Positions 1,578 through 60,348 of a DNA stretch of 64,000 nucleotides are shown in pieces. Origin of the DNA: Nitrospiraceae bacterium. Its GTDB lineage: Bacteria > Nitrospirota > Thermodesulfovibrionia > UBA6902. The DNA lies in the NCBI GenBank assembly GCA_003599275.1, contig QZJG01000065.1, positions 1,410 through 65,409 on the forward strand. Reading direction: 5' to 3'. The notes under the pieces are model-generated. The model was not told where the DNA came from. It saw nothing but the letters and a program-made list of their open reading frames with translations, and did no database searches. The first letter of the stretch is position 1. The number at the start of each line of letters is the position of its first letter. The translations under genes and the position numbers were made by a program.

Positions 1578-4424
1578 TTATTGAGTTGTAAAGCGTTGCA
1601 CCTGACTCTCTGTTATTCCTCCCTTACCATCATCAACAGTGACTTTCCAGTAGTATGTAGTGCCTGTTTCTAATCCTGATACACTCCGGGTAACTTCATC
1701 ACTTGTCACCCCTCCGCCTCCATTACCGCCACCGCCACCCCCTCCGCCGCCACCGCATGAAACAAAGAGCATGGTGAACATCGTAATTATTACGATCAGG
1801 AGGAACATTTTTTTTCTGGTCCTTGCATCAGCGGCAAACACCATTCCGAACAACAACAGGCCGAGACCGGTCCCTGCATAGTGGACAGTTTTATTTCCGG
1901 CAGAAGCCTGTATGGAGGTAACGCCTATAAAATCCGGATCTTCACTATAGTAAAAGTGATAGGTTATCTGGTCCAGATCGGGGTCTGTGCAATTTTTCCA
2001 TCTGAATGACAGAGTTGTTCCCATATTTATCTGACCATTTGCAGGATAAACAAGCTCAGGCGAGGAAGGCGGATTATTATCGGCTGATGAAAGCCCTGTT
2101 CCACTTACTGCAACCATTACCGGATTTTCATCCGAATCATTTGACGGGATGTCAAAGCTGTCACTGAATGTGCCGGTCGCAGTCGGGGTAAAATTAACTG
2201 TAATGGTGCAGTCCTCTGTCGGCAACAGGACTTTTCCTGAGCAGTTGTCATTCAATATCTCAAATGGCGGTGTGAGCTGGTCATTCAGCGCTATGGCTCC
2301 TATAACAAGATTTGCAGTCCCGTAATTGGCTATCTTGACGGCCCTTGCCATGACGAGGCCTTCCGTTAAATTCTCAAAAGGCATTTGAAGGTCATCGGCA
2401 GGTCCCCTGGCATCGGACACCTTAATGTCCGGCGTCGGCAGAGTTCCTGTCCCACTCACACTTACGGTCACCGTGCTTTCATCGGGATCGTCAGAAGGAA
2501 TATCAAAGCTGTCGGCAGACATTATCAATGCTGACGGGGCGAAGGTCACTTTGAAAGTACACGTTGCCGCCGGGACCAGGACTTTGTTTGAGCAGTTGTC
2601 ATTTGATATTTCAAACGGCGTCGCAACGGGATTTGCACCTGCAATCTGACCGATATTAAAATCCGCATTGCCGCTGTTGGCAACCGTCACTGTCTGACTC
2701 GATAAACTGCCGGCTGATATATTACCGAAGGGCATGTTCCTGTCATCAACGGGTGGGATGGTGTCTGTCACTGAAATGTCAGGCTGAAGTATCTGTGAAG
2801 CAGGCAGATCTAATCTTCCATAGCCATAAACATTATCTTTTCCTGTCGCCCCCATATCTACTGCCTGATCAGTCAGGGCGTCCCATAACTGCGAGACAGA
2901 ATAACCGGGCTTATGGGAAAGGATTAAGGCCGCTGCCCCTGCAACATGCGGACTGGATGCGCTTGTGCCGAAAAAAGAACCATACGAATAACTTGATACA
3001 CCATCAGGGCCGCTGATATCCGGTTTTATTCTGCTGTCATTAGACGGGCCTTGCGAACTGAAACTCTCATAGGGACCGGTGCTCCATTTGTCCTTATTTA
3101 TGGCGGCAACGGCCATTGCATTAACTGCGTCTGCCGGGCCTATAAGACTGCTTGAGGCAACTGCGGGATTCAGGTTGTGATTGAAACTGTAAACCTCAAG
3201 CTTATGGTTTCCGGTTGCGGAACTTTTTTTGATTTTCAGATAATAAGTGCCGGAGGCCGGTACAGGATAATAAATATCTTCTATCGGCAGTTGTGTCCCG
3301 GTCTGAGATGTGTTGCTTGATGCCACCGGTGAAATTGAACTGTAACTATTATAAAGGAGCAAGTCATAGTCCTGATCGGTAGCAGGCCATGCATTCCATG
3401 TCAAAAAGGCCTGAATTGTCGATCCCGCACTTGCATAAATGGTTACAGCCTCATTGCTTCCGGATACGTTATGCCATTTGTCTGCATCAGGGTCTGAAAA
3501 GGCAGCTTCGTAGTGTTGCTGTGCTGAATTCCCTGCGGAATTTACCCACAGAATGCCGCTCGAATAGGCATCGTTAACAGTGCAGACCGGGTTGTCGTAA
3601 TAACATTCGCCGCTATAGAAATTTGTATTTACCCATCCTACTGAGTGGTTTATGATTTTAATCCCGTTATTTTTGCAGTAATCTTTTGCATCCTTTAAAT
3701 CTAAATTGTCGTCGATCTTCATAAGATACAATTGCGCCTCCGGGGCCATGTCGTAGACAATCTCGGCAACAGCGGTCCCGTGGTCTTCCGTCTCATTGGA
3801 GAAAGTTGTCGAAGTACATGAGCTCGTACAGTCGATTTTTGCAACACTGCCCGGCAATTCGCCTGCGGATATAGCTGAAGATAATCCTTTAAATCCGACG
3901 TCTATTATCGCGATTTTTACCCCTGCGCCTTTATATCCTGTGGAATGATAAACGGACGCCCCTGTCAGGCCCACTCCCTCACTTGTATATGATAACGGCA
4001 GGGGCTTATCAGGTAATTTTATAAACGATATCCCTGCCACATTATCTGCTATCTGTTTAATCATATTGACCGGGACCTTTGCTTTCATCACCTTATCGCC
4101 GCTCTTTACGATCTCAACTCCATAAGACTGAAGGGCATTCCTGTCAATTGCGTCAACGGTCCCGTCAGGTTTTGAAATCAGAAACACTGTGACTTTGTCC
4201 CGGTATTCAATTTTTATGTCTCTCTCCCGAGCAAAACTTTGAATATTGATTACGTCTGTTTCATATTTGTCCTGCAATTCCGCAAGGACACTTGCTACTT
4301 TTGGATGTACATTCCCGTTCTTGTAAACACCTTGCGCATTTGACGAAGCAGTGAAGACACAAACAATAAATACGGCTATCGTAAAAAATATTGCTGATTG
4401 CCTCACGTACCATTTCCTGTTCAT
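1578..4424 (-). CDS. Secreted subtilisin-like (S8) serine protease, with prodomain, two ~110-aa tandem beta-domain repeats and a C-terminal FN3-like/poly-Gly region
   Basis: N-terminal signal peptide. Catalytic triad motifs are present: DVGF (Asp), HGTAVAEIV (His), GTSASSPHVAGAAALI (Ser). An internal tandem repeat has the pattern ...FDIPSDDPDESTVTVSVSGTG / ...FDIPSNDSDENPVMVAVSGTG. A G10NG4 run sits near the C-terminus. Confidence 0.85.
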   Translation of the reverse strand: MNRKWYVRQSAIFFTIAVFIVCVFTASSNAQGVYKNGNVHPKVASVLAELQDKYETDVINIQSFARERDIKIEYRDKVTVFLISKPDGTVDAIDRNALQSYGVEIVKSGDKVMKAKVPVNMIKQIADNVAGISFIKLPDKPLPLSYTSEGVGLTGASVYHSTGYKGAGVKIAIIDVGFKGLSSAISAGELPGSVAKIDCTSSCTSTTFSNETEDHGTAVAEIVYDMAPEAQLYLMKIDDNLDLKDAKDYCKNNGIKIINHSVGWVNTNFYSGECYYDNPVCTVNDAYSSGILWVNSAGNSAQQHYEAAFSDPDADKWHNVSGSNEAVTIYASAGSTIQAFLTWNAWPATDQDYDLLLYNSYSSISPVASSNTSQTGTQLPIEDIYYPVPASGTYYLKIKKSSATGNHKLEVYSFNHNLNPAVASSSLIGPADAVNAMAVAAINKDKWSTGPYESFSSQGPSNDSRIKPDISGPDGVSSYSYGSFFGTSASSPHVAGAAALILSHKPGYSVSQLWDALTDQAVDMGATGKDNVYGYGRLDLPASQILQPDISVTDTIPPVDDRNMPFGNISAGSLSSQTVTVANSGNADFNIGQIAGANPVATPFEISNDNCSNKVLVPAATCTFKVTFAPSALIMSADSFDIPSDDPDESTVTVSVSGTGTLPTPDIKVSDARGPADDLQMPFENLTEGLVMARAVKIANYGTANLVIGAIALNDQLTPPFEILNDNCSGKVLLPTEDCTITVNFTPTATGTFSDSFDIPSNDSDENPVMVAVSGTGLSSADNNPPSSPELVYPANGQINMGTTLSFRWKNCTDPDLDQITYHFYYSEDPDFIGVTSIQASAGNKTVHYAGTGLGLLLFGMVFAADARTRKKMFLLIVIITMFTMLFVSCGGGGGGGGGGNGGGGVTSDEVTRSVSGLETGTTYYWKVTVDDGKGGITESQVQRFTTQ

Positions 4425-4433
4425 TTTGTCCCC

Positions 4434-4871
4434 TTACCGTACTACCGGTTTGTCAGGCAATTTTATCGACCGTATAATGGGTTCTTTTGATAGAGAGGTC
4501 AGCGCTTCTACAGGGACCGACGCCCTCAATAAATCTTTTGATTTTTTTTCTTCAACGATGCCGTGACTTTTAATTATCTCTTCTCTCTTTGAATCGTCAG
4601 AGGCCGGATCAAATATTATAAAGACCCTGACTTTCCCATTGGACAAGAAGATGTCATGTTGCTTTGCAAAGTTTTCCCGGTCTGCTGCAAGTGTAAGTTC
4701 ATAAAGTACTGAGCTGAGTTTCGCATATTCTCCGGGTTGCTTGTGTTGTGTCACTTTTTCCGGGAGGGCAGATTGTTGCGCAGATGTGCAGGACGCTATT
4801 AAAAGCAGATGGAGAAATAAAAAAGCGCTTTTGATTGTTCCGGATTTATAAACCCTGCTTGCCCTTTTCAT
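4434..4871 (-). CDS. Stand-alone lipoprotein homologous to the protease's own N-terminal prodomain (I9-inhibitor-like)
   Basis: Lipobox LLIASC. It aligns with residues ~40-140 of the downstream protease (SSVLYEL/ASVLAEL, KVRVFIIFDP/KVTVFLISKP, SIKLPDKP/SFIKLPDKP). Its stop lies 7 bp before the protease start. Confidence 0.7.
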   Translation of the reverse strand: MKRASRVYKSGTIKSAFLFLHLLLIASCTSAQQSALPEKVTQHKQPGEYAKLSSVLYELTLAADRENFAKQHDIFLSNGKVRVFIIFDPASDDSKREEIIKSHGIVEEKKSKDLLRASVPVEALTSLSKEPIIRSIKLPDKPVVR

Positions 4872-4990
4872 TGAGACGGCCCCCGGTTAATTTCAAGAAT
4901 CGACTTAAATTTTATATCAGACTCCCATCCCATTGTCAAACAGCCGGGGCGGGTTAAACGCACAATTCTTTATTTTGTATAATATAAACC

Positions 4991-6406
4991 ATGTCAAACA
5001 TCAAACATGATTTAAACGGACTTTCTATTCTCGTAATTGAAGATGATACGGCTTCAGTGAAAAGTATCGAGGGTGAGCTGAGGGATTACGGCGCAAATGT
5101 CTTTACGGCATCGGGAGCTGAAAGGGCGTCGGAGATTTTATCAAAGGAGCATATCAGCGTGATACTCGTCTCCCTCATGCTTGCAGACGAGAAATGCCTG
5201 AATGCCGTAAAGGATTACAAGGCAAGATATCCGGACACCCTGTTTTATTTATTGGCCGAGCATAATTACTGCCTCGTGGAACCGGTTGAAGAATCCATAA
5301 GGCAGATATTGGATGATTACTTCCGGAAGCCCCTTGATATTGAAAGATTTGCAAGTATAGTTGGGGCGAGTTTCGGAAGGCCCCGTTCTTCGATAACGGC
5401 GTTGTCCGTAATCGAGCCTTTAGCCAACAGGACAAAGCCGTATTTTATCTTCCGGTCCTATACCATGCGCCTGGCGCTCTCCAGCCTTCCACAGATCGCA
5501 GCTTCGGAACAGACCGTCCTTGTTTCGGGAGAAACAGGGACAGGGAAGGAACTGGTCGCCCGCGCCATTCATATGCTGAGTCCACGTTCGAACGGTCCGT
5601 TTGTCCCCATCAACTGCGGCGCCATACCCGAGAGCCTCATTGAGAGCGAGCTCTTCGGCCATGAAAAAGGGGCCTTCACAGGGGCGTTCAAGAGCCGGAA
5701 GGGGAAGTTCGAGGCCGCAGACAACGGGACGTTATTTCTCGATGAGATCGGCGACATGCCGCTTGTTCTGCAGATCCGCCTTCTCAGGGTGCTGGAAGAC
5801 AGGGAGGTCTATCGTATCGGCAGTGATAAGCGCATACCCGTCAGCGTCAGGGTCATAACCGCTACTCATATGGACCTTGAAGGCGCGGTGAGGAACGGCC
5901 TTTTCAGGGAAGACCTCTACTACCGTTTGAATGTACTCCGCATCCACCTGCCGCCGCTCAGAGAGCGTGTTGACGACATTCCGATACTCGCTTTGCATTT
6001 CCTCGAAAGGGCGTTTGATGAGATGCGGCGCGCTCAGCCCTATCCTTCCCTTTCACCTGAGACGGTCTACCTCCTTCAGCGCCATCCCTGGAATGGCAAT
6101 GTCAGGGAACTCAGAAACGTCATGACCCGTGTGGCCACATTATTGCCTCCCGACACAAAACATGTATTCCCGATACATGTCTCGCCTCATCTTGAAGGTA
6201 TAAACAGGGCAAAGAAAAGTCCGGACATCCCGGTAAGTTCGCAGGGGATATTCATCCCGAAAGGAACATCCCTCGAAAAGGCTGAAGACATGCTGATACA
6301 GGAGACATTAAAACAGACCGGCGGCAATCGCACAAAGGCCGCAAAACTTCTCGGCATCAGCATCAGGACCCTCAGAAGAAAGCTCCCCGGCATCCCCTCC
6401 CCATAG
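4991..6406 (+). CDS. Sigma-54-dependent transcriptional activator (NtrC family) with a non-phosphorylatable receiver-like domain
   Basis: AAA+ sigma-54 interaction motifs GETGTGKELVARAIH, GAFTGA and ESELFGHEKGAFTGA. C-terminal Fis-type HTH AAKLLGISIRTLRRKL. In the N-terminal REC-like domain the phospho-Asp position reads VILVSLMLAD (Ser) and the Thr position reads LLAEH (Ala). Confidence 0.85.
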   Translation: MSNIKHDLNGLSILVIEDDTASVKSIEGELRDYGANVFTASGAERASEILSKEHISVILVSLMLADEKCLNAVKDYKARYPDTLFYLLAEHNYCLVEPVEESIRQILDDYFRKPLDIERFASIVGASFGRPRSSITALSVIEPLANRTKPYFIFRSYTMRLALSSLPQIAASEQTVLVSGETGTGKELVARAIHMLSPRSNGPFVPINCGAIPESLIESELFGHEKGAFTGAFKSRKGKFEAADNGTLFLDEIGDMPLVLQIRLLRVLEDREVYRIGSDKRIPVSVRVITATHMDLEGAVRNGLFREDLYYRLNVLRIHLPPLRERVDDIPILALHFLERAFDEMRRAQPYPSLSPETVYLLQRHPWNGNVRELRNVMTRVATLLPPDTKHVFPIHVSPHLEGINRAKKSPDIPVSSQGIFIPKGTSLEKAEDMLIQETLKQTGGNRTKAAKLLGISIRTLRRKLPGIPSP

Positions 6407-56049: not shown

Positions 56050-56220
56050 AAGGGGGAAAGGGAAGAAAGATCCGAAGACAACGCCCGCGAAATAATTGAT
56101 GAGATACTTATTGCCAATCTCAAACGCGCTGAACGACTGCGGCAGTCGATATTGAAGAAGGCGTTTTCGGGGAGGCTTGTAGAGCAGGAGAAGAACTATA
56201 ACACTATGGGAAATACCTAA
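56050..56220 (+). pseudogene. hsdS: 3' remnant of type I R-M specificity subunit hsdS
   Basis: A 57-codon open frame with no start. It ends ...EDNAREIIDEILIANLKRAERLRQSILKKAFSGRLVEQEK, the conserved C-terminal coiled-coil of HsdS (LRQSILKxAFxGxL). Confidence 0.65.
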
Positions 56221-56244: not shown

Positions 56245-58209
56245 ATGAGTAATCTAAGAGCCTTTGTAGGTCATAGCTTTACAGATAATGATAAAGATGT
56301 AGTTCGTGAGTTCCTTGATTTTTTTGATCGAGTTCAAAGGATGGGGCTCGGATTCACATGGGATCATGCTGAGCCTGCTGCTCCAAAGATTCTTTCTGAG
56401 AAAGTATTAAGATTAATGGAAGATAAAAATCTGTTTATTGCAATATGTACGGCAAAGGAACAGGTCATAGATCCAAAGAATCTAAAAGAATCATGGCTAA
56501 ATAAGACAATTTTGAAAGCAAAAAAAGATGCTTTTAATTGGAAAACATCTGACTGGATTATTCAAGAAATAGGAGTTGCTGTTGGGAAGAAAATGGAGAA
56601 AATTATTTTACTTGAAGAGGGGTTAAGAAAACCTGGAGGACTCCAAGGAGATTTAGAATATATTCTTTTTAAACGTAACGAGCCATCAAAATCCTTTAAT
56701 AAAATAATTGAGATGTTAACAGCACTTTCACCAAAGGAGACATTGATCAAAGCTTCTCAATCGGAATCATCTGAAAAAACAGAAGTTGAGGCAATGCAAC
56801 AAGAGAAAGAAGAAAAGGTGGAGCCATCTACCTCTTGGGGAAAAAATGATTATGAATTTGCACTGTTTCGAGCCATTATCAAAGATGATAAAGAACAAGA
56901 ACAGAAAATAATTAAGGCATATAACGATTCAGAAGAAGGACAAAAAGACTCTAATAAAGCATCTTTTGAGGCCTTGAAATACTATTTCCGAAGATTGCAA
57001 GGTAAGGGAGTATACATAGAAGAACTAAAAGCATTGGCCAGCAAACATCCTGATAAGAGTGAAATTTCTTATTATTTAGGAAAAGCATACGAGGAATATA
57101 AAGACAATGATAAAGCTACCGTTCAATATGAAAAATCTGCTGAGTATACGCAAAGCCCTGAAGACAAGCTTGATCGTTATTGTTATGCTGCATTGGCAAA
57201 ATGTAAAAATGGTTCTAAGGACAGTGAAGACTGGCTGTTAAATAAGGTACGAATTTTGATTCCTGAGGTTGACGGTGGGGAATTTAGACTTTTAACGGCA
57301 CTAAGAGATATTGCTTTAATCGACGATAATAATGACAATTATTTAGCATTTGCAGAAAGGATGCTCGATATTAAGCCCGATGATAAAGATTTAAGATTTT
57401 CATTGGCATATAAGTATTCGGAGCTAAATAATAACGAATTAGCATTATTTCATTATTTGCTAATCCCGAATAGGGATCGTAACTCTGCAACTTGGAATAA
57501 TATAGGTGTTGCATGTGCAGAGCTTGGAATGCATGGAAAGGCAGTAGATGCATATCGTGAATCTGAAAAACTGGGGGGAACACTTGCTATGAGTAACCTA
57601 TCACATAAATTTATAACAGCCGGCTTCTTAAAGGAAGCAGAAGAAATTTGTGATAACGCTGTGAAAATAGAAAACTATAACAAACAAGTAGGAACTGCTA
57701 TCACGAGCATTAAAGAAACCAAAGACAATGACGATCAAAAACAAAAAAAGATATTAGATGATTATGAAAAAAGACGTAAGTTCTATATTGATTATGGGAA
57801 AGCAAGTATAAACCATCCGCCTGAAAATCATGAGGGTGTATGGGCTGGACCTGAATGTGAGCTCAATATCGAAGTTAAAGGAAGGACCTTTATTGCAAAA
57901 GGAAGTTATGAGAAAAAGGAGCGATTAAGGGTTGGGCTTGCTCCTCTTGCTTTTAGTTATGCATATAGTCAGGCAGAAAAGTCAGTGAAAATAAATGTCC
58001 GCTATGAAGGCGTCATAATAGGACGGGGAATAGAATATAAACTATTCATAGATAGAGAAGGTGGACAATCTACCGGGATAACAGCCTTTATTGATGGCGG
58101 ACCATCTAATGAGGGATTAATGATTATTGATGAAAATATGAAAACAATTAAGGTATATCAAAAAGGATCAAAAGAGACGGAGAAATTTTATGAGCTACGG
58201 AGAAAATAA
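56245..58209 (+). CDS. TIR-like domain / TPR-repeat protein (candidate antiphage effector)
   Basis: N-terminus RAFVGHSFTDNDKDVV ... LFIAICTAKEQ ... SDWIIQEIGVAVG resembles bacterial TIR (SxW..E motif). Then multiple TPR-like repeats and a beta-rich C-domain. Very AT-rich gene. Confidence 0.5.
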   Translation: MSNLRAFVGHSFTDNDKDVVREFLDFFDRVQRMGLGFTWDHAEPAAPKILSEKVLRLMEDKNLFIAICTAKEQVIDPKNLKESWLNKTILKAKKDAFNWKTSDWIIQEIGVAVGKKMEKIILLEEGLRKPGGLQGDLEYILFKRNEPSKSFNKIIEMLTALSPKETLIKASQSESSEKTEVEAMQQEKEEKVEPSTSWGKNDYEFALFRAIIKDDKEQEQKIIKAYNDSEEGQKDSNKASFEALKYYFRRLQGKGVYIEELKALASKHPDKSEISYYLGKAYEEYKDNDKATVQYEKSAEYTQSPEDKLDRYCYAALAKCKNGSKDSEDWLLNKVRILIPEVDGGEFRLLTALRDIALIDDNNDNYLAFAERMLDIKPDDKDLRFSLAYKYSELNNNELALFHYLLIPNRDRNSATWNNIGVACAELGMHGKAVDAYRESEKLGGTLAMSNLSHKFITAGFLKEAEEICDNAVKIENYNKQVGTAITSIKETKDNDDQKQKKILDDYEKRRKFYIDYGKASINHPPENHEGVWAGPECELNIEVKGRTFIAKGSYEKKERLRVGLAPLAFSYAYSQAEKSVKINVRYEGVIIGRGIEYKLFIDREGGQSTGITAFIDGGPSNEGLMIIDENMKTIKVYQKGSKETEKFYELRRK

Positions 58210-58212
58210 ATT

Positions 58213-58284
58213 ATGAGCACAGCACAAATAGTTCAAAAACTTTAGAATTACTGCAACGTCCTCCGTGACGATGGGATGAGTTAA
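58213..58284 (+). pseudogene. hsdM: 5' fragment of type I R-M methyltransferase hsdM (copy 1, internal stop)
   Basis: MSTAQIVQKL*NYCNVLRDDGMS* is the highly conserved HsdM N-terminus (IVQKLWNYCNVLRDDG), with TAG in place of Trp. Confidence 0.6.
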
Positions 58285-58286
58285 AT

Positions 58287-58940
58287 ATGAAAAAATCAGG
58301 CAGGTATAATACAGCGCATTTAATTGAAGATCAATTCGAGCCGGGGTCGCGTGGCAGGGTGCTCAGAAATCTTTTGCATATCACTCGCAAGCGCGAGATG
58401 GATGTTATTGAGGCTGAACGATACGCGCTTGTGCAAACGAAACTCATGGGTATGTTCACGAAAGAGCATCGCTTTTCCGCATCCGATACCTGCACGATAC
58501 ATAGAGAATGGCTTAGCGATGTGTATGAGTGGGCCGGACAATACCGACAGGTGAACATATCAAAGAACGGCTTTAGCTTTGCTATGGCACCTTATGTCCC
58601 AAAGCTGATGCAAGACTTTGAAGCCGGAGCGTTGAAAAAATATACCCCTTGTCTCTTTAAAAGCGATGATGAAATTGTTGCCGCGCTCGCAGTAGTCCAT
58701 ACCGAACTTATGCTGATTCATCCCTTCCGTGAAGGAAACGGACGGGCAGGGAGACTGCTCGCAGTTTTAATGGCATTACAGGCAGGGCTACGGGGTCTTG
58801 ATTTTACTGATATACAAGGTAAAAAGCGGAAAGAATATTTTACTGCTGTGCAGGCAGGTATGGGGCAGGATTATGAACCGATGAAAAAAATTTTCAGGTC
58901 CGTGGTTTCCCGGACGAAACAGAAACATGTGCAGTGCTGA
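58287..58940 (+). CDS. fic: Fic-family protein (AMPylator/toxin), no intrinsic inhibitory helix
   Basis: Fic motif HPFREGNGRAGR. No [ST]xxxE[GN] motif anywhere in the protein. Confidence 0.85.
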   Translation: MKKSGRYNTAHLIEDQFEPGSRGRVLRNLLHITRKREMDVIEAERYALVQTKLMGMFTKEHRFSASDTCTIHREWLSDVYEWAGQYRQVNISKNGFSFAMAPYVPKLMQDFEAGALKKYTPCLFKSDDEIVAALAVVHTELMLIHPFREGNGRAGRLLAVLMALQAGLRGLDFTDIQGKKRKEYFTAVQAGMGQDYEPMKKIFRSVVSRTKQKHVQC

Positions 58941-59100
58941 AGACGGTTTTCGCCTTGGCTATATTTTTCATGGCTTTCCTCGCAGGCGCATGGACCCCCT
59001 CGATAGCCGAGGAAGAAATGGTAACAGTTTCGATGATCTGCCTGCGTACCTCAGGGTCTTTAAGGAAGGGGTTGGTTTCAAGTAATGACTTCTTTGACAT
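58894..59100 (-). CDS. Small protein carrying the Fic-inhibitory (S/T)xxxE(G/N) motif; candidate antitoxin or Fic N-terminal remnant
   Basis: MSKKSLLETNPFLKDPEVRRQIIETVTISSSAIEGVHAP... contains SSAIEG. It is convergent with fic and overlaps its 3' end by 47 nt. Weak RBS. Confidence 0.35.
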   Translation of the reverse strand: MSKKSLLETNPFLKDPEVRRQIIETVTISSSAIEGVHAPARKAMKNIAKAKTVFSTAHVSVSSGKPRT

Positions 59101-59145
59101 GCTATATCATACCATTTGATGACAGGATATCGAAAGGCATAATAA

Positions 59146-59217
59146 ATGACTAACGGCTCAGCCACTATAGTCCAAAAACTCTGGAACTATTGCAACGTCC
59201 TTCGTGACGACGGATGA
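59146..59217 (+). pseudogene. hsdM: 5' fragment of hsdM (copy 2)
   Basis: MTNGSATIVQKLWNYCNVLRDDG* is about 85% nt-identical to copy 1 and is truncated by TGA. Confidence 0.6.
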
Positions 59218-59361
59218 ACCGCGACGACATTACCGACTTCAACTGATCTTTCAATGTCAGGCGAAGTCTGACGCCCCCAAAAAATCTCTTGACAGGTCGG
59301 CTTTGGTCTCATATGATTTTATCAGGGAGTATTACAGGATTTTTATAGCAGTGCAAAGGAG

Positions 59362-59766
59362 GTGAATGAGGTGAGGTTTTCGCTTATTAAACATATTTCG
59401 TGGTATCTTGTTTTTGTCATGTTCCTGACCGGCATTGTGCCCCGCGTCGAAGCAGGGATTTCCCCTTCGGAGGCGATTGCCGCCGTGGGATTTGACAGGG
59501 GTTCCGATATCCAAACGATCCGGAAATTCATCGAAATGAAAATGGTGAGGGAAAGACTCGCGAAACTTGGATTCACTGCGGATGAGGTCCAGTCGAGACT
59601 CGGTCAATTAAGTGATGAGCGGATCCATCAGCTCGCACAGAGGCTCGATGACCTTAAGGTCGGCGCCGACGACGGGCTGGGGATCATAATCGCCTTACTT
59701 GTTATCGCGATTTTGATAGTCATTCTGATACAGCTTACGGGTCGCAAGATTATTATCACCAAATGA
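59362..59766 (+). CDS. PA2779-family small protein (signal peptide plus C-terminal TM)
   Basis: N-terminal signal and C-terminal hydrophobic LGIIIALLVIAILIVILIQL. Paired with a downstream C39-like peptidase, as in PA2779/PA2778 pairs. Confidence 0.45.
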   Translation: MNEVRFSLIKHISWYLVFVMFLTGIVPRVEAGISPSEAIAAVGFDRGSDIQTIRKFIEMKMVRERLAKLGFTADEVQSRLGQLSDERIHQLAQRLDDLKVGADDGLGIIIALLVIAILIVILIQLTGRKIIITK

Positions 59767-59781
59767 TTTTCAGGGACCTCT

Positions 59782-60348
59782 ATGTCAGGCAACGTCAGTT
59801 CTTATAGGACAAAAAAGGATGCAGCGCTGCATCCTTTTTTGTTTCTCGTGGTATTTTCTTTTGTCATTTCATGCTCCGGTGCGGCTGAGATAAGGGGGGG
59901 CGGCGTCGAAATTATCAGGGACGTCCCTTTCTATCCGCAGGAGGCCTACCAGTGCGGCCCTTCATCACTTGCCGGAGTAATGAATTATCTCGGAGCGGAT
60001 GCCACGCCTGAGGAGATCGCGGAGGAGATTTACAGTAAATCGGCAGGAGGGACGCTGGATATGGACATGGTCCTATACGCGGAGAAAAAGGGGTTGAGGG
60101 CGAGCCTGTATGAAGGCAGCTTTGAGGACATCAGGGACAAAGTCATGTCGCAGCAGCCGCTGATAGTCATGGTGGATTACGGTTTCTGGGTTTATCAGCA
60201 AAACCATTTTATGGTTGTTACAGGATTCGACAAAAACGGTGTTATAGTCAATTCCGGCAGAGAGCAACACAAGTTTCTGCCCATAAATAATTTTTTGAGG
60301 TCGTGGGAGAGGACAAAATTCCGGACACTCCTTATATTGCCCCAATGA
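59782..60348 (+). CDS. C39-like (PA2778-family) cysteine peptidase
   Basis: FYPQEAYQCGPSSLAGVMNYLG (Cys) and HFMVVTGFD (His) dyad. Signal peptide. Confidence 0.6.
   Translation: MSGNVSSYRTKKDAALHPFLFLVVFSFVISCSGAAEIRGGGVEIIRDVPFYPQEAYQCGPSSLAGVMNYLGADATPEEIAEEIYSKSAGGTLDMDMVLYAEKKGLRASLYEGSFEDIRDKVMSQQPLIVMVDYGFWVYQQNHFMVVTGFDKNGVIVNSGREQHKFLPINNFLRSWERTKFRTLLILPQ

Follow-up and report, generated by a model that had tools for sequence, protein, structure and literature searches.

In class I Fic toxin-antitoxin (TA) modules, ficA genes are located upstream of ficT within one operon (PMC5033356). The gene for AntF is likewise found upstream of fic-1, inhibition through the glutamate in the inhibitory alpha-inh helix has been described, and the complex of Fic-1 and AntF acts as a deAMPylase (PMC13327609). 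The gene pair considered here lies in a 64,000-nucleotide (nt) stretch of a Nitrospiraceae genome (contig QZJG01000065.1 of assembly GCA_003599275.1, forward-strand positions 1,410 to 65,409), which is called the window. It consists of a fic gene and a small open reading frame (ORF) on the opposite strand, whose 3' ends overlap. We consider it likely that the two form a class I FicTA-like TA module with a non-canonical gene layout, in which the small protein of 68 amino acids (aa) is the cognate inhibitor.

The pair resembles VbhT/VbhA, EcFicT/EcFicA (YhfG), Fic-1/AntF of Pseudomonas bijieensis and Bep/BiaA in having a single-domain Fic protein of ~200 aa that carries the canonical motif but lacks an inhibitory one of its own. 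It also has a separate partner of <100 aa in which [ST]xxxE[GN] stands at a helix end ~25-35 residues from the N-terminus (S30/E34 in the small protein, S20/E24 in VbhA, and S24/E28 in both EcFicA and AntF). In those modules, however, the antitoxin gene is immediately upstream, co-directional and in one operon (PMC5033356, PMC13327609), whereas here it is downstream, convergent and 3'-overlapping, and has its own promoter with a predicted leaderless mRNA. The initial annotation had called this layout unusual, and the convergent arrangement was recovered in all related loci (designated below by L and a number).

The Fic protein and its small partner

The fic gene (58287-58940, forward strand) is intact and encodes a 217-aa protein, a predicted class I FIC-domain AMP-transferase toxin. 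The translation matched Pfam PF02661 (Fic; E = 9e-18), and a regular-expression search located the catalytic Fic motif HPFREGNGRAGR at residues 145-156 (nt 58719-58754, forward strand), which fits HxFx(D/E)GNGRxxR. When the whole protein was checked for [ST]xxxE[GN], no match was found anywhere, as initially claimed. Among 120 Fic homologs, the catalytic motif is kept in 119 and the inhibitory motif occurs in just 5, as chance matches at non-homologous positions. One homolog (P0070) is 89% identical to the window Fic over the full length.

The closest sequences in PDB were those of Fic-1 from P. bijieensis (8WT0, E = 4e-18), EcFicT (5JFF) and VbhT (3SHG). An AlphaFold2 (AF2) model of Fic (predicted local distance difference test, pLDDT, 85; predicted TM-score, pTM, 0.85) found the same three proteins as its best structural matches (target TM 0.77-0.78), all of which were crystallised together with small antitoxins. 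The canonical motif, the missing internal inhibitory motif and these nearest folds support the placement of the window Fic in class I (FicT clade), which the initial annotation had proposed. Its top NCBIfam match was PRK10347, at 82 bits against a cut-off of 181, and other models scored further below. Because these scores are under the equivalog cut-offs of NCBIfam for orthology with E. coli Fic (PRK10347), VbhT and NmFic, the protein is regarded as a member of a distinct subfamily and not as an ortholog. If it acts like Fic-1, EcFicT and VbhT, its target would be GyrB/ParE, and AMPylation of these would stop growth.

The partner, a predicted Fic inhibitor or antitoxin of an unannotated family, is encoded on the reverse strand at 59100-58894 (translation MSKKSLLETNPFLKDPEVRRQIIETVTISSSAIEGVHAPARKAMKNIAKAKTVFSTAHVSVSSGKPRT). 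Its 3' end overlaps that of fic at 58894-58940, where 47 nt including both stop codons are coding on both strands; the coordinates first reported for the pair were confirmed. The candidate inhibitory motif, S30-S-A-I-E34-G35, is located at 59013-58996 on the reverse strand. It had been called the only one nearby, and a six-frame search of 57600-59700 returned just one other [ST]xxxE[GN] match, in a 38-aa out-of-frame segment within the upstream gene. Given the six-frame motif density of the window, ~4% of random 68-aa ORFs would have the motif by chance, so SSAIEG by itself is weak and not significant. The small-ORF finding stands above chance because it is conserved, in homologs, in clusters and in the recurring convergent overlap.

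A database search returned 69 close homologs of the small ORF, all labelled 'hypothetical protein' and with few exceptions exactly 68 aa long; they come from metagenomes of Thermodesulfovibrionia and Nitrospirota. An exhaustive hidden Markov model (HMM) search gave 689 clusters at 50% identity (E<=1e-3), nearly all of 47-138 aa and typically 55-75 aa. The ORF thus has homologs; the initial annotation had held that a lack of both homologs and expression would speak against its proposal. Conservation is concentrated in a core of residues 1-36 (MSKKSLLETNPFLKDP...SSSAIEG), followed by a variable basic tail, and the family consensus of the first ~36 residues reads M.KKSL.ETNPYLKDP..R.......V.SS.AIEG. 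N10, S30 and E34 are invariant (S30 and E34 in alignment A2), and conservation of G35 reaches at least 90%. Of 219 family members, 218 have SxxxE and 197 have the full [ST]xxxE[GN].

Substitution rates were determined from 24 distinct 68-codon alleles. The ratio of nonsynonymous to synonymous rates (dN/dS) is 0.09 over codons 1-37, 0.23 over codons 38-53 and 0.50 in the overlap with fic; dS in the overlap is 0.47, versus ~0.9-1.0 elsewhere in the small ORF, as would be expected where both DNA strands code. The small ORF is a real protein-coding gene under strong purifying selection. It and its relatives had no match in Pfam, NCBIfam, PADLOC or PHROG, and a tblastn search with the conserved core found no match on plasmids or phages. 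Weak Dodecin-type matches of the small ORF were dismissed as noise.

An AF2 model of the small protein, built with 67 sequences (pLDDT 81), has a short N-terminal turn and helices at residues 16-34 and 37-59, the second of which drops in confidence to ~60 past residue 50. The first helix, of 19 residues, closes exactly at E34 and is followed by a break at G35. This helix, ending in S30xxxE34G35, would bind Fic as an alpha-inh helix. E34 would then reach the site of the ATP gamma-phosphate and pair with the second arginine of the Fic motif, as in VbhA, EcFicA and AntF, and the complex may also be a deAMPylase, like Fic-1-AntF.

The resemblance of SSAIEG to the motif of Fic_N, confined to the motif itself, was the basis for a different proposal in the initial annotation, namely that what is left here is the N-terminal part of another, inverted fic gene of class II, whose Fic_N region carried an auto-inhibitory helix. 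This was refuted, because the family is free-standing and never fused to Fic. The small ORF and 24 relatives had no Fic-related Pfam family at E<=10, Fic_N included. The 689 clusters have conserved stops along with their narrow length range, and the longer entries are upstream extensions or read-throughs without a Fic domain. There is also no fic-like sequence downstream on the strand of the ORF, where the DNA is the antisense of the partner fic.

Pairing, decay and expression of the two genes

In order to follow the pairing, 101 unique sites were compiled from 23 genome loci, 80 metagenome loci and others, with the metagenome scan made via alignment A3. All 23 loci from species-representative genomes have a convergent fic gene or fic remnant in a fixed geometry. 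An intact convergent fic (53-100% identical to the queries) is present at ~40 of the 101 sites, and at ~27 a truncated, frameshifted or nearly deleted fic stands by an intact small ORF. No fic was found at 14 sites despite room on the contig, and at the remainder the contig end is too near to judge. About 85% of informative sites have fic or a remnant of it.

The convergent overlap with fic recurs in ~65 independent loci. Wherever the 3' end of fic exists, the overlap measures 20-68 nt (mode 47) and is always 2 mod 3; this identical phase in every locus indicates a single origin. Sampling that began from fic, with 5 different Fic proteins, gave 12 loci, all with an intact small ORF, which gene callers had left out in 5 of them (L117, L118, L119, L122 and L124). 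Because the pair recurs across about a hundred related loci, it is taken to be a real TA module. An asymmetry of the kind expected of toxin and antitoxin is also evident, since every intact fic sampled has an intact partner and the partner often outlives fic, as in L002-7, L016 and L023.

Decay has left different traces. At L002-7 the last 30 fic codons alone are left, and a long imperfect palindrome (attaatacaaacgcattaag...cttaatgcgtttgtattaat; ~6310-6470 in L006) stands in place of the deleted part, possibly an insertion like a miniature inverted-repeat transposable element (MITE).

That fic is often lost while the small ORF stays is easier to reconcile with a toxin than with an enzyme the cell cannot spare, and it bears on a reading of the pair as an obligate two-subunit enzyme or defence effector. 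There, the small protein would be a permanent subunit that makes Fic a deAMPylase or a switch triggered by phage. PADLOC lists the Fic family among its phage-defence candidates (PDC-S04), the window Fic having matched model PDLC04839 at E = 5e-72 (residues 6-208 of the protein against 3-203 of the 205 in the model), and the pair is located in restriction-modification (R-M) and defence islands. We regard this as improbable, and it overlaps the TA interpretation without excluding it.

The small ORF has a promoter of its own. A promoter scan placed TCGATA-16-TGg-TATGAT at 59106-59133 on the reverse strand, with 5 nt between the end of the -10 element (59106) and the ATG (59100). In a comparison of 86 unique related upstream regions, an extended -10 (TGnTAtAAT) stands at a fixed distance from the start codon, which is always ATG: T and G occupy -14 and -13 in 84% and 83%, TAtAAT occupies -11 to -6 at 80-87% (third base T 55%), and -1 is a pyrimidine. 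A Shine-Dalgarno-like sequence was found in 3 of the 86, and the window copy has no Shine-Dalgarno sequence. Because the -10 element ends so close to the ATG and no Shine-Dalgarno sequence is present, the small-ORF mRNA is predicted from these signals to be probably leaderless.

No promoter-like site was found upstream of fic. Located immediately before it (58213-58284, forward strand) is a leader, MSTAQIVQKL*NYCNVLRDDGMS*, identified by tblastn with the HsdM of L012 and by alignment A4 as the opening ~24 codons of a gene for a type I methylase (hsdM') that stop 2 nt before the fic ATG. The junction between leader and fic (..ATGAGTTA|AATATGAAA) is identical in L029, whose Fic is only 53% identical, and is also found in L027. 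Intact leaders elsewhere are open ORFs that reach the fic start codon, with an ATGA overlap in some loci. That the leader ORF stops at the fic start suggests, on sequence grounds, that translation of fic is coupled to it. Toxin and antitoxin would be expressed independently, since fic is promoterless and would be read from the upstream operon, whereas the antitoxin would be transcribed from its own extended -10 promoter as a leaderless message.

A scan of the window locus found no terminator-like site between or beyond the convergent genes on either strand, so each transcript probably runs into the other gene. The antitoxin transcript would then run antisense into fic, with possible damping at the RNA level or by collision. 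The initial annotation had offered a cis-antisense RNA as another function for the small gene. In its full form this holds that the gene acts mainly through its transcript (type I-like or by transcriptional interference) and that the peptide is secondary. Convergent genes overlapping by 47 nt with no terminator-like site on either strand, an overlap universal in the family and a strong, conserved promoter directed into fic are what such a regulator would show. Yet the dN/dS of 0.09 in the core falls in the part outside the fic overlap, there is no variation in the Fic-inhibitory motif, every start codon is ATG and placed right for leaderless translation, the ORF and its motif are retained where fic is deleted, and no Rfam family matched. 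A function that is mainly RNA-level is therefore very unlikely. As the only function of the small gene, an antisense RNA does not agree with the coding constraint; as an added layer it is possible, given the missing terminator. The protein antitoxin in antisense arrangement, also among the options first listed, is best supported, by the constraint on the core, the invariant serine and glutamate, the linkage to fic and the separate promoter.

Several observations weigh against a FicA-type protein inhibitor. Unlike VbhA and YhfG, with which it has no detectable homology outside the motif, the small protein has an invariant N-terminal KKSLLETNPYLKDP segment, which has no counterpart in VbhA or FicA. 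A PDB profile search of the small protein found no match, and Foldseek with its model found none. The alignment to VbhA/FicA proposed in the initial annotation, made by using hhalign with VbhA and YhfG reference sequences checked against PDB, gave a probability of 0.2% for VbhA and 1.1% for YhfG, the latter pairing residues 26-40 with 20-34, which is the motif stretch alone. Roughly 10% of family members have T, S or E after the glutamate in place of G or N. In the window leader, a premature TAG at 58243-58245 may cause Fic to be poorly translated. Finally, at the 14 fic-less sites the small ORF is antisense inside type I R-M operons and has another conserved tail, so that the small protein may have a role beyond its neighbour fic. 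Because homology is undetectable beyond the motif, the small protein is likened to FicA-type inhibitors in its action and is not placed in their family.

The fic-less small ORFs (L073, L075, L078-80, L084-86, L090, L095, L096, L102, L104 and L105) keep the motif and have the tails VKYPKFTKELKKKMRE... or YITEEDLDRFE.... At L078 the small ORF has an hsdM' copy on either side, as would be left by a clean excision of fic.

A job independent of Fic, for instance as regulator or anti-addiction factor of type I R-M operons that merely shares a cargo cassette with fic, would suit these sites, at which the ORF is antisense between hsdS and hsdM, has its distinct tail and adjoins HEPN/MNT, PIN, DUF3800 or helicase cargo. 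It would also suit the many loci in which the small ORF is divergent from hsdM over a conserved ~45-nt spacer. We give it a low probability, in view of the high share of informative sites with fic or a remnant. Besides N10, the only invariant residues are the S and E of the Fic-inhibitory motif. The cassette is also found outside R-M loci, for example at L036 (larC/cdsA) and L118, and one of the fic-less loci (L085) has a RhuM-Fic fusion protein head-to-head with the small ORF. Orphan antitoxins are, moreover, a common outcome of TA decay.

Type I restriction-modification setting

What remains at the window locus is the relic of a type I R-M operon, in the order hsdS tail, cargo, hsdM' leader, fic, small ORF and hsdM' stub. 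An association of fic/doc genes with such operons had been noted initially. It holds in an unexpected form: no R-M genes survive in the window, but the pair is flanked by hsdS and hsdM stubs, and related cassettes are directly upstream of intact hsdM or hsdR. The TA module would thus be cargo of type I R-M operons, whose R-M genes have been lost in the window with stubs left behind.

The hsdS 3' remnant ('...LKRAERLRQSILKKAFSGRLVEQ...'; 56050-56220, forward strand) corresponds to the last ~35-55 codons of hsdS, and tblastn with the HsdS of L020 and L028 aligned 56089-56196 (E up to 3e-8). It is followed by a 654-aa cargo gene with TPR repeats (56245-58209, forward strand), which sits directly upstream from the fic leader and is probably transcribed together with fic. 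TPR was its only Pfam match. The N-terminal domain of ~200 aa has no Pfam family, the G+C content (0.33-0.38) is far below that of the surroundings, and no PADLOC match was found. The same gene precedes fic in L017. A TIR-like N-terminus was considered for this protein and not adopted, as there was no Pfam support and BLASTP against the TIR_2-TPR protein of L031 gave no similarity.

Beyond the pair, a second hsdM' copy (MTNGSATIVQKLWNYCNVLRDDG*; 59146-59217, forward strand) matches residues 1-23 of an intact HsdM at 96% identity; past codon 23 the frame shifts, and the remainder of hsdM is deleted (tblastn, alignment A4). This stub is divergent from the small ORF, separated from it by a 45-nt spacer, and is a direct repeat of the leader at 58213-58284. 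Further along, a perfect 34-nt palindrome (59809-59842) stands at the start of a peptidase C39-like gene (59782-60348), upstream of which is a DUF6627 gene with a near-consensus promoter at 59289-59317.

Related loci have the order hsdS, cargo, fic, antisense small ORF and intact hsdM, where a KAP NTPase, DUF6880, GmrSD-HNH or reverse transcriptase gene is the cargo between hsdS and fic. Loci of another Fic subfamily are arranged as hsdM, hsdS, OLD, TIR, an hsdR' fragment, fic, small ORF and intact hsdR. Outside R-M operons, the cassette was found between larC and cdsA (L036), at L118 and inside duplicated flavin reductase 3' ends (L001). Other features of these loci were recorded alongside. 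At L117 an RVT_1 reverse-transcriptase gene (829-1800) and then a 356-aa gene form the cargo between hsdS and fic of a type I R-M operon. At the Nitrospirota loci L085, L012, L020, L028, L117 and L122, hsdS is upstream of hsdM on the same strand with cargo between them, whereas the usual order is hsdM-hsdS; a helicase-like ORF before hsdS in L085 was tentatively taken as the C-terminus of hsdR. An IS200-like Y1 transposase gene (MTYNPEIHHRRSIRL...) repeatedly adjoins the small ORF (L020 3393-3980, L073 2401-2994, L102 2576-2971, L105 1744-2139, L122-125 3835-4422 and L027 2716-3285), mostly between the small-ORF promoter and hsdM and divergent from the small ORF. The L020 copy matched Pfam Y1_Tnp, and the shorter L102 copy had no Pfam match.

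Repeated gene ends are a common feature. A 5' segment of hsdM (codons ~6-25, IVQKLWNYCNVLRDDG) is present 2-3 times per locus: at 58213-58284 and 59146-59217 in the window, in L020, L027, L029, L040, L062 and L069, and further in L078/79 (3 copies), L095 (3 copies), L097/98, L102/105 and L122-125. Each extra hsdM' copy is a mini-ORF of 20-31 codons whose end coincides with, or closely precedes, the start codon of the cargo gene that follows, which may be fic, MNT-HEPN or a HEPN-like 115-aa gene. The operon can then be read as running from hsdS and a first cargo through successive [hsdM' leader]-cargo units to hsdM, and it looks like an array of cassettes with the hsdM 5' end as repeat, leader, or both. 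Comparable duplications involve other genes. In L031/L032 a 140-codon 5' fragment of hsdR (4577-4999) precedes fic and a full hsdR (from 5908/6155 onward) follows the cassette, and in L025 a duplicated fic 5' end (928-990 and 2072-2133) flanks an MNT-HEPN pair.

The non-R-M cassettes of L001 and L021 are flanked by direct repeats of 110-412 bp, 93-97% identical, of the 3' end of a neighbouring gene. Three copies are present in each: at 4465-4876, 5688-5940 and 6628-7049 in L001 (flavin reductase 3' end), and at 3830-3939, 4834-4943 and 5530-5630 in L021 (end of an upstream 140-aa ORF at 3502-3924). In L001 a second pair of small genes, one of the Gp49 family (HigB-like), is located between repeat copies 1 and 2. 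A simple model of transposition with target-site duplication was rejected, since the repeats are copied from the ends of neighbouring genes and differ widely in length (22-420 bp); it is also countered by the lack of a recombinase inside the cassette and by the ancient hsdM'-fic junction.

A more far-reaching proposal, which we put forward tentatively and think rather unlikely, is that type I R-M operons host a cassette system not described before, of which the fic/small-ORF pair is one unit. In front of each cargo would stand a duplicate of the initial ~25 codons of hsdM (or ~140 of hsdR), and this copy would serve both as a recombination site for gain, loss or exchange and as a leader ORF that couples translation of the cargo to the R-M initiation signals. 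The antitoxin would be a hybrid, acting as a leaderless protein inhibitor while convergent transcription also damps the promoterless toxin and read-through into hsdM. No earlier description of hsdM-leader cassettes was found in the literature, of which coverage was incomplete.

Comparison with described systems

Class I Fic toxins have been thought recognisable by a small antitoxin gene upstream, and others have been catalogued as single-gene systems (PDC-S04) or assumed to be unregulated. The present analysis points to a large Fic clade with a predicted inhibitor on the opposite strand, from a family of ~690 clusters that has no models and is often skipped by gene callers. The set of Fic inhibitors would be widened by a family unrelated to VbhA/FicA, either through independent recruitment of an SxxxEG helix or through extreme divergence. 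A type II-style pair with separate, colliding promoters and a predicted leaderless antitoxin mRNA may also offer a clean system for studying the toxin:antitoxin ratio without operon autoregulation. Convergent overlapping small ORFs by 'orphan' toxins merit a systematic search. No prior description of a convergent or antisense Fic antitoxin was found in the literature, the coverage of which was again incomplete.

Class II and III Fic proteins (SoFic, FICD and EfFic; NmFic) share the inhibitory motif and presumably the same obstruction of ATP binding by its glutamate. In these proteins the motif is within the Fic polypeptide, whereas the window Fic has none and the small-ORF family is never fused to Fic. 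PADLOC PDC-S04 is alike in the full-length model match and in its defence and R-M context, but it is catalogued as a single-gene system, and the convergent small ORF found here has no PADLOC model.

Convergent genes with a 3' overlap and complementary transcripts are also seen in type I TA pairs such as txpA/RatA and bsrG/SR4 of Bacillus subtilis, in which a non-coding RNA counteracts a toxin that is a small membrane peptide. The window pair shares the convergent layout and the 3' overlap. It differs in that the antisense gene encodes a protein that is under purifying selection and has an enzyme-inhibitory motif.

Among embedded cargo of type I R-M operons, such as PrrC and the V. cholerae VPI-2 operon (PMC11411939), the Fic cassette is similar in its location between hsdS and hsdM or between hsdS and hsdR, where KAP NTPase, GmrSD-HNH, OLD, TIR, reverse transcriptase and HEPN/MNT genes are found beside it as defence cargo. 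Unlike in those systems, each cargo unit here follows a short leader ORF formed by a copy of the 5' end of the R-M gene downstream. Set against all of these systems, the inhibitor family, the convergent overlapping layout and the predicted leaderless, separately promoted antitoxin appear from sequence to be new, while the biochemical logic is one already known.

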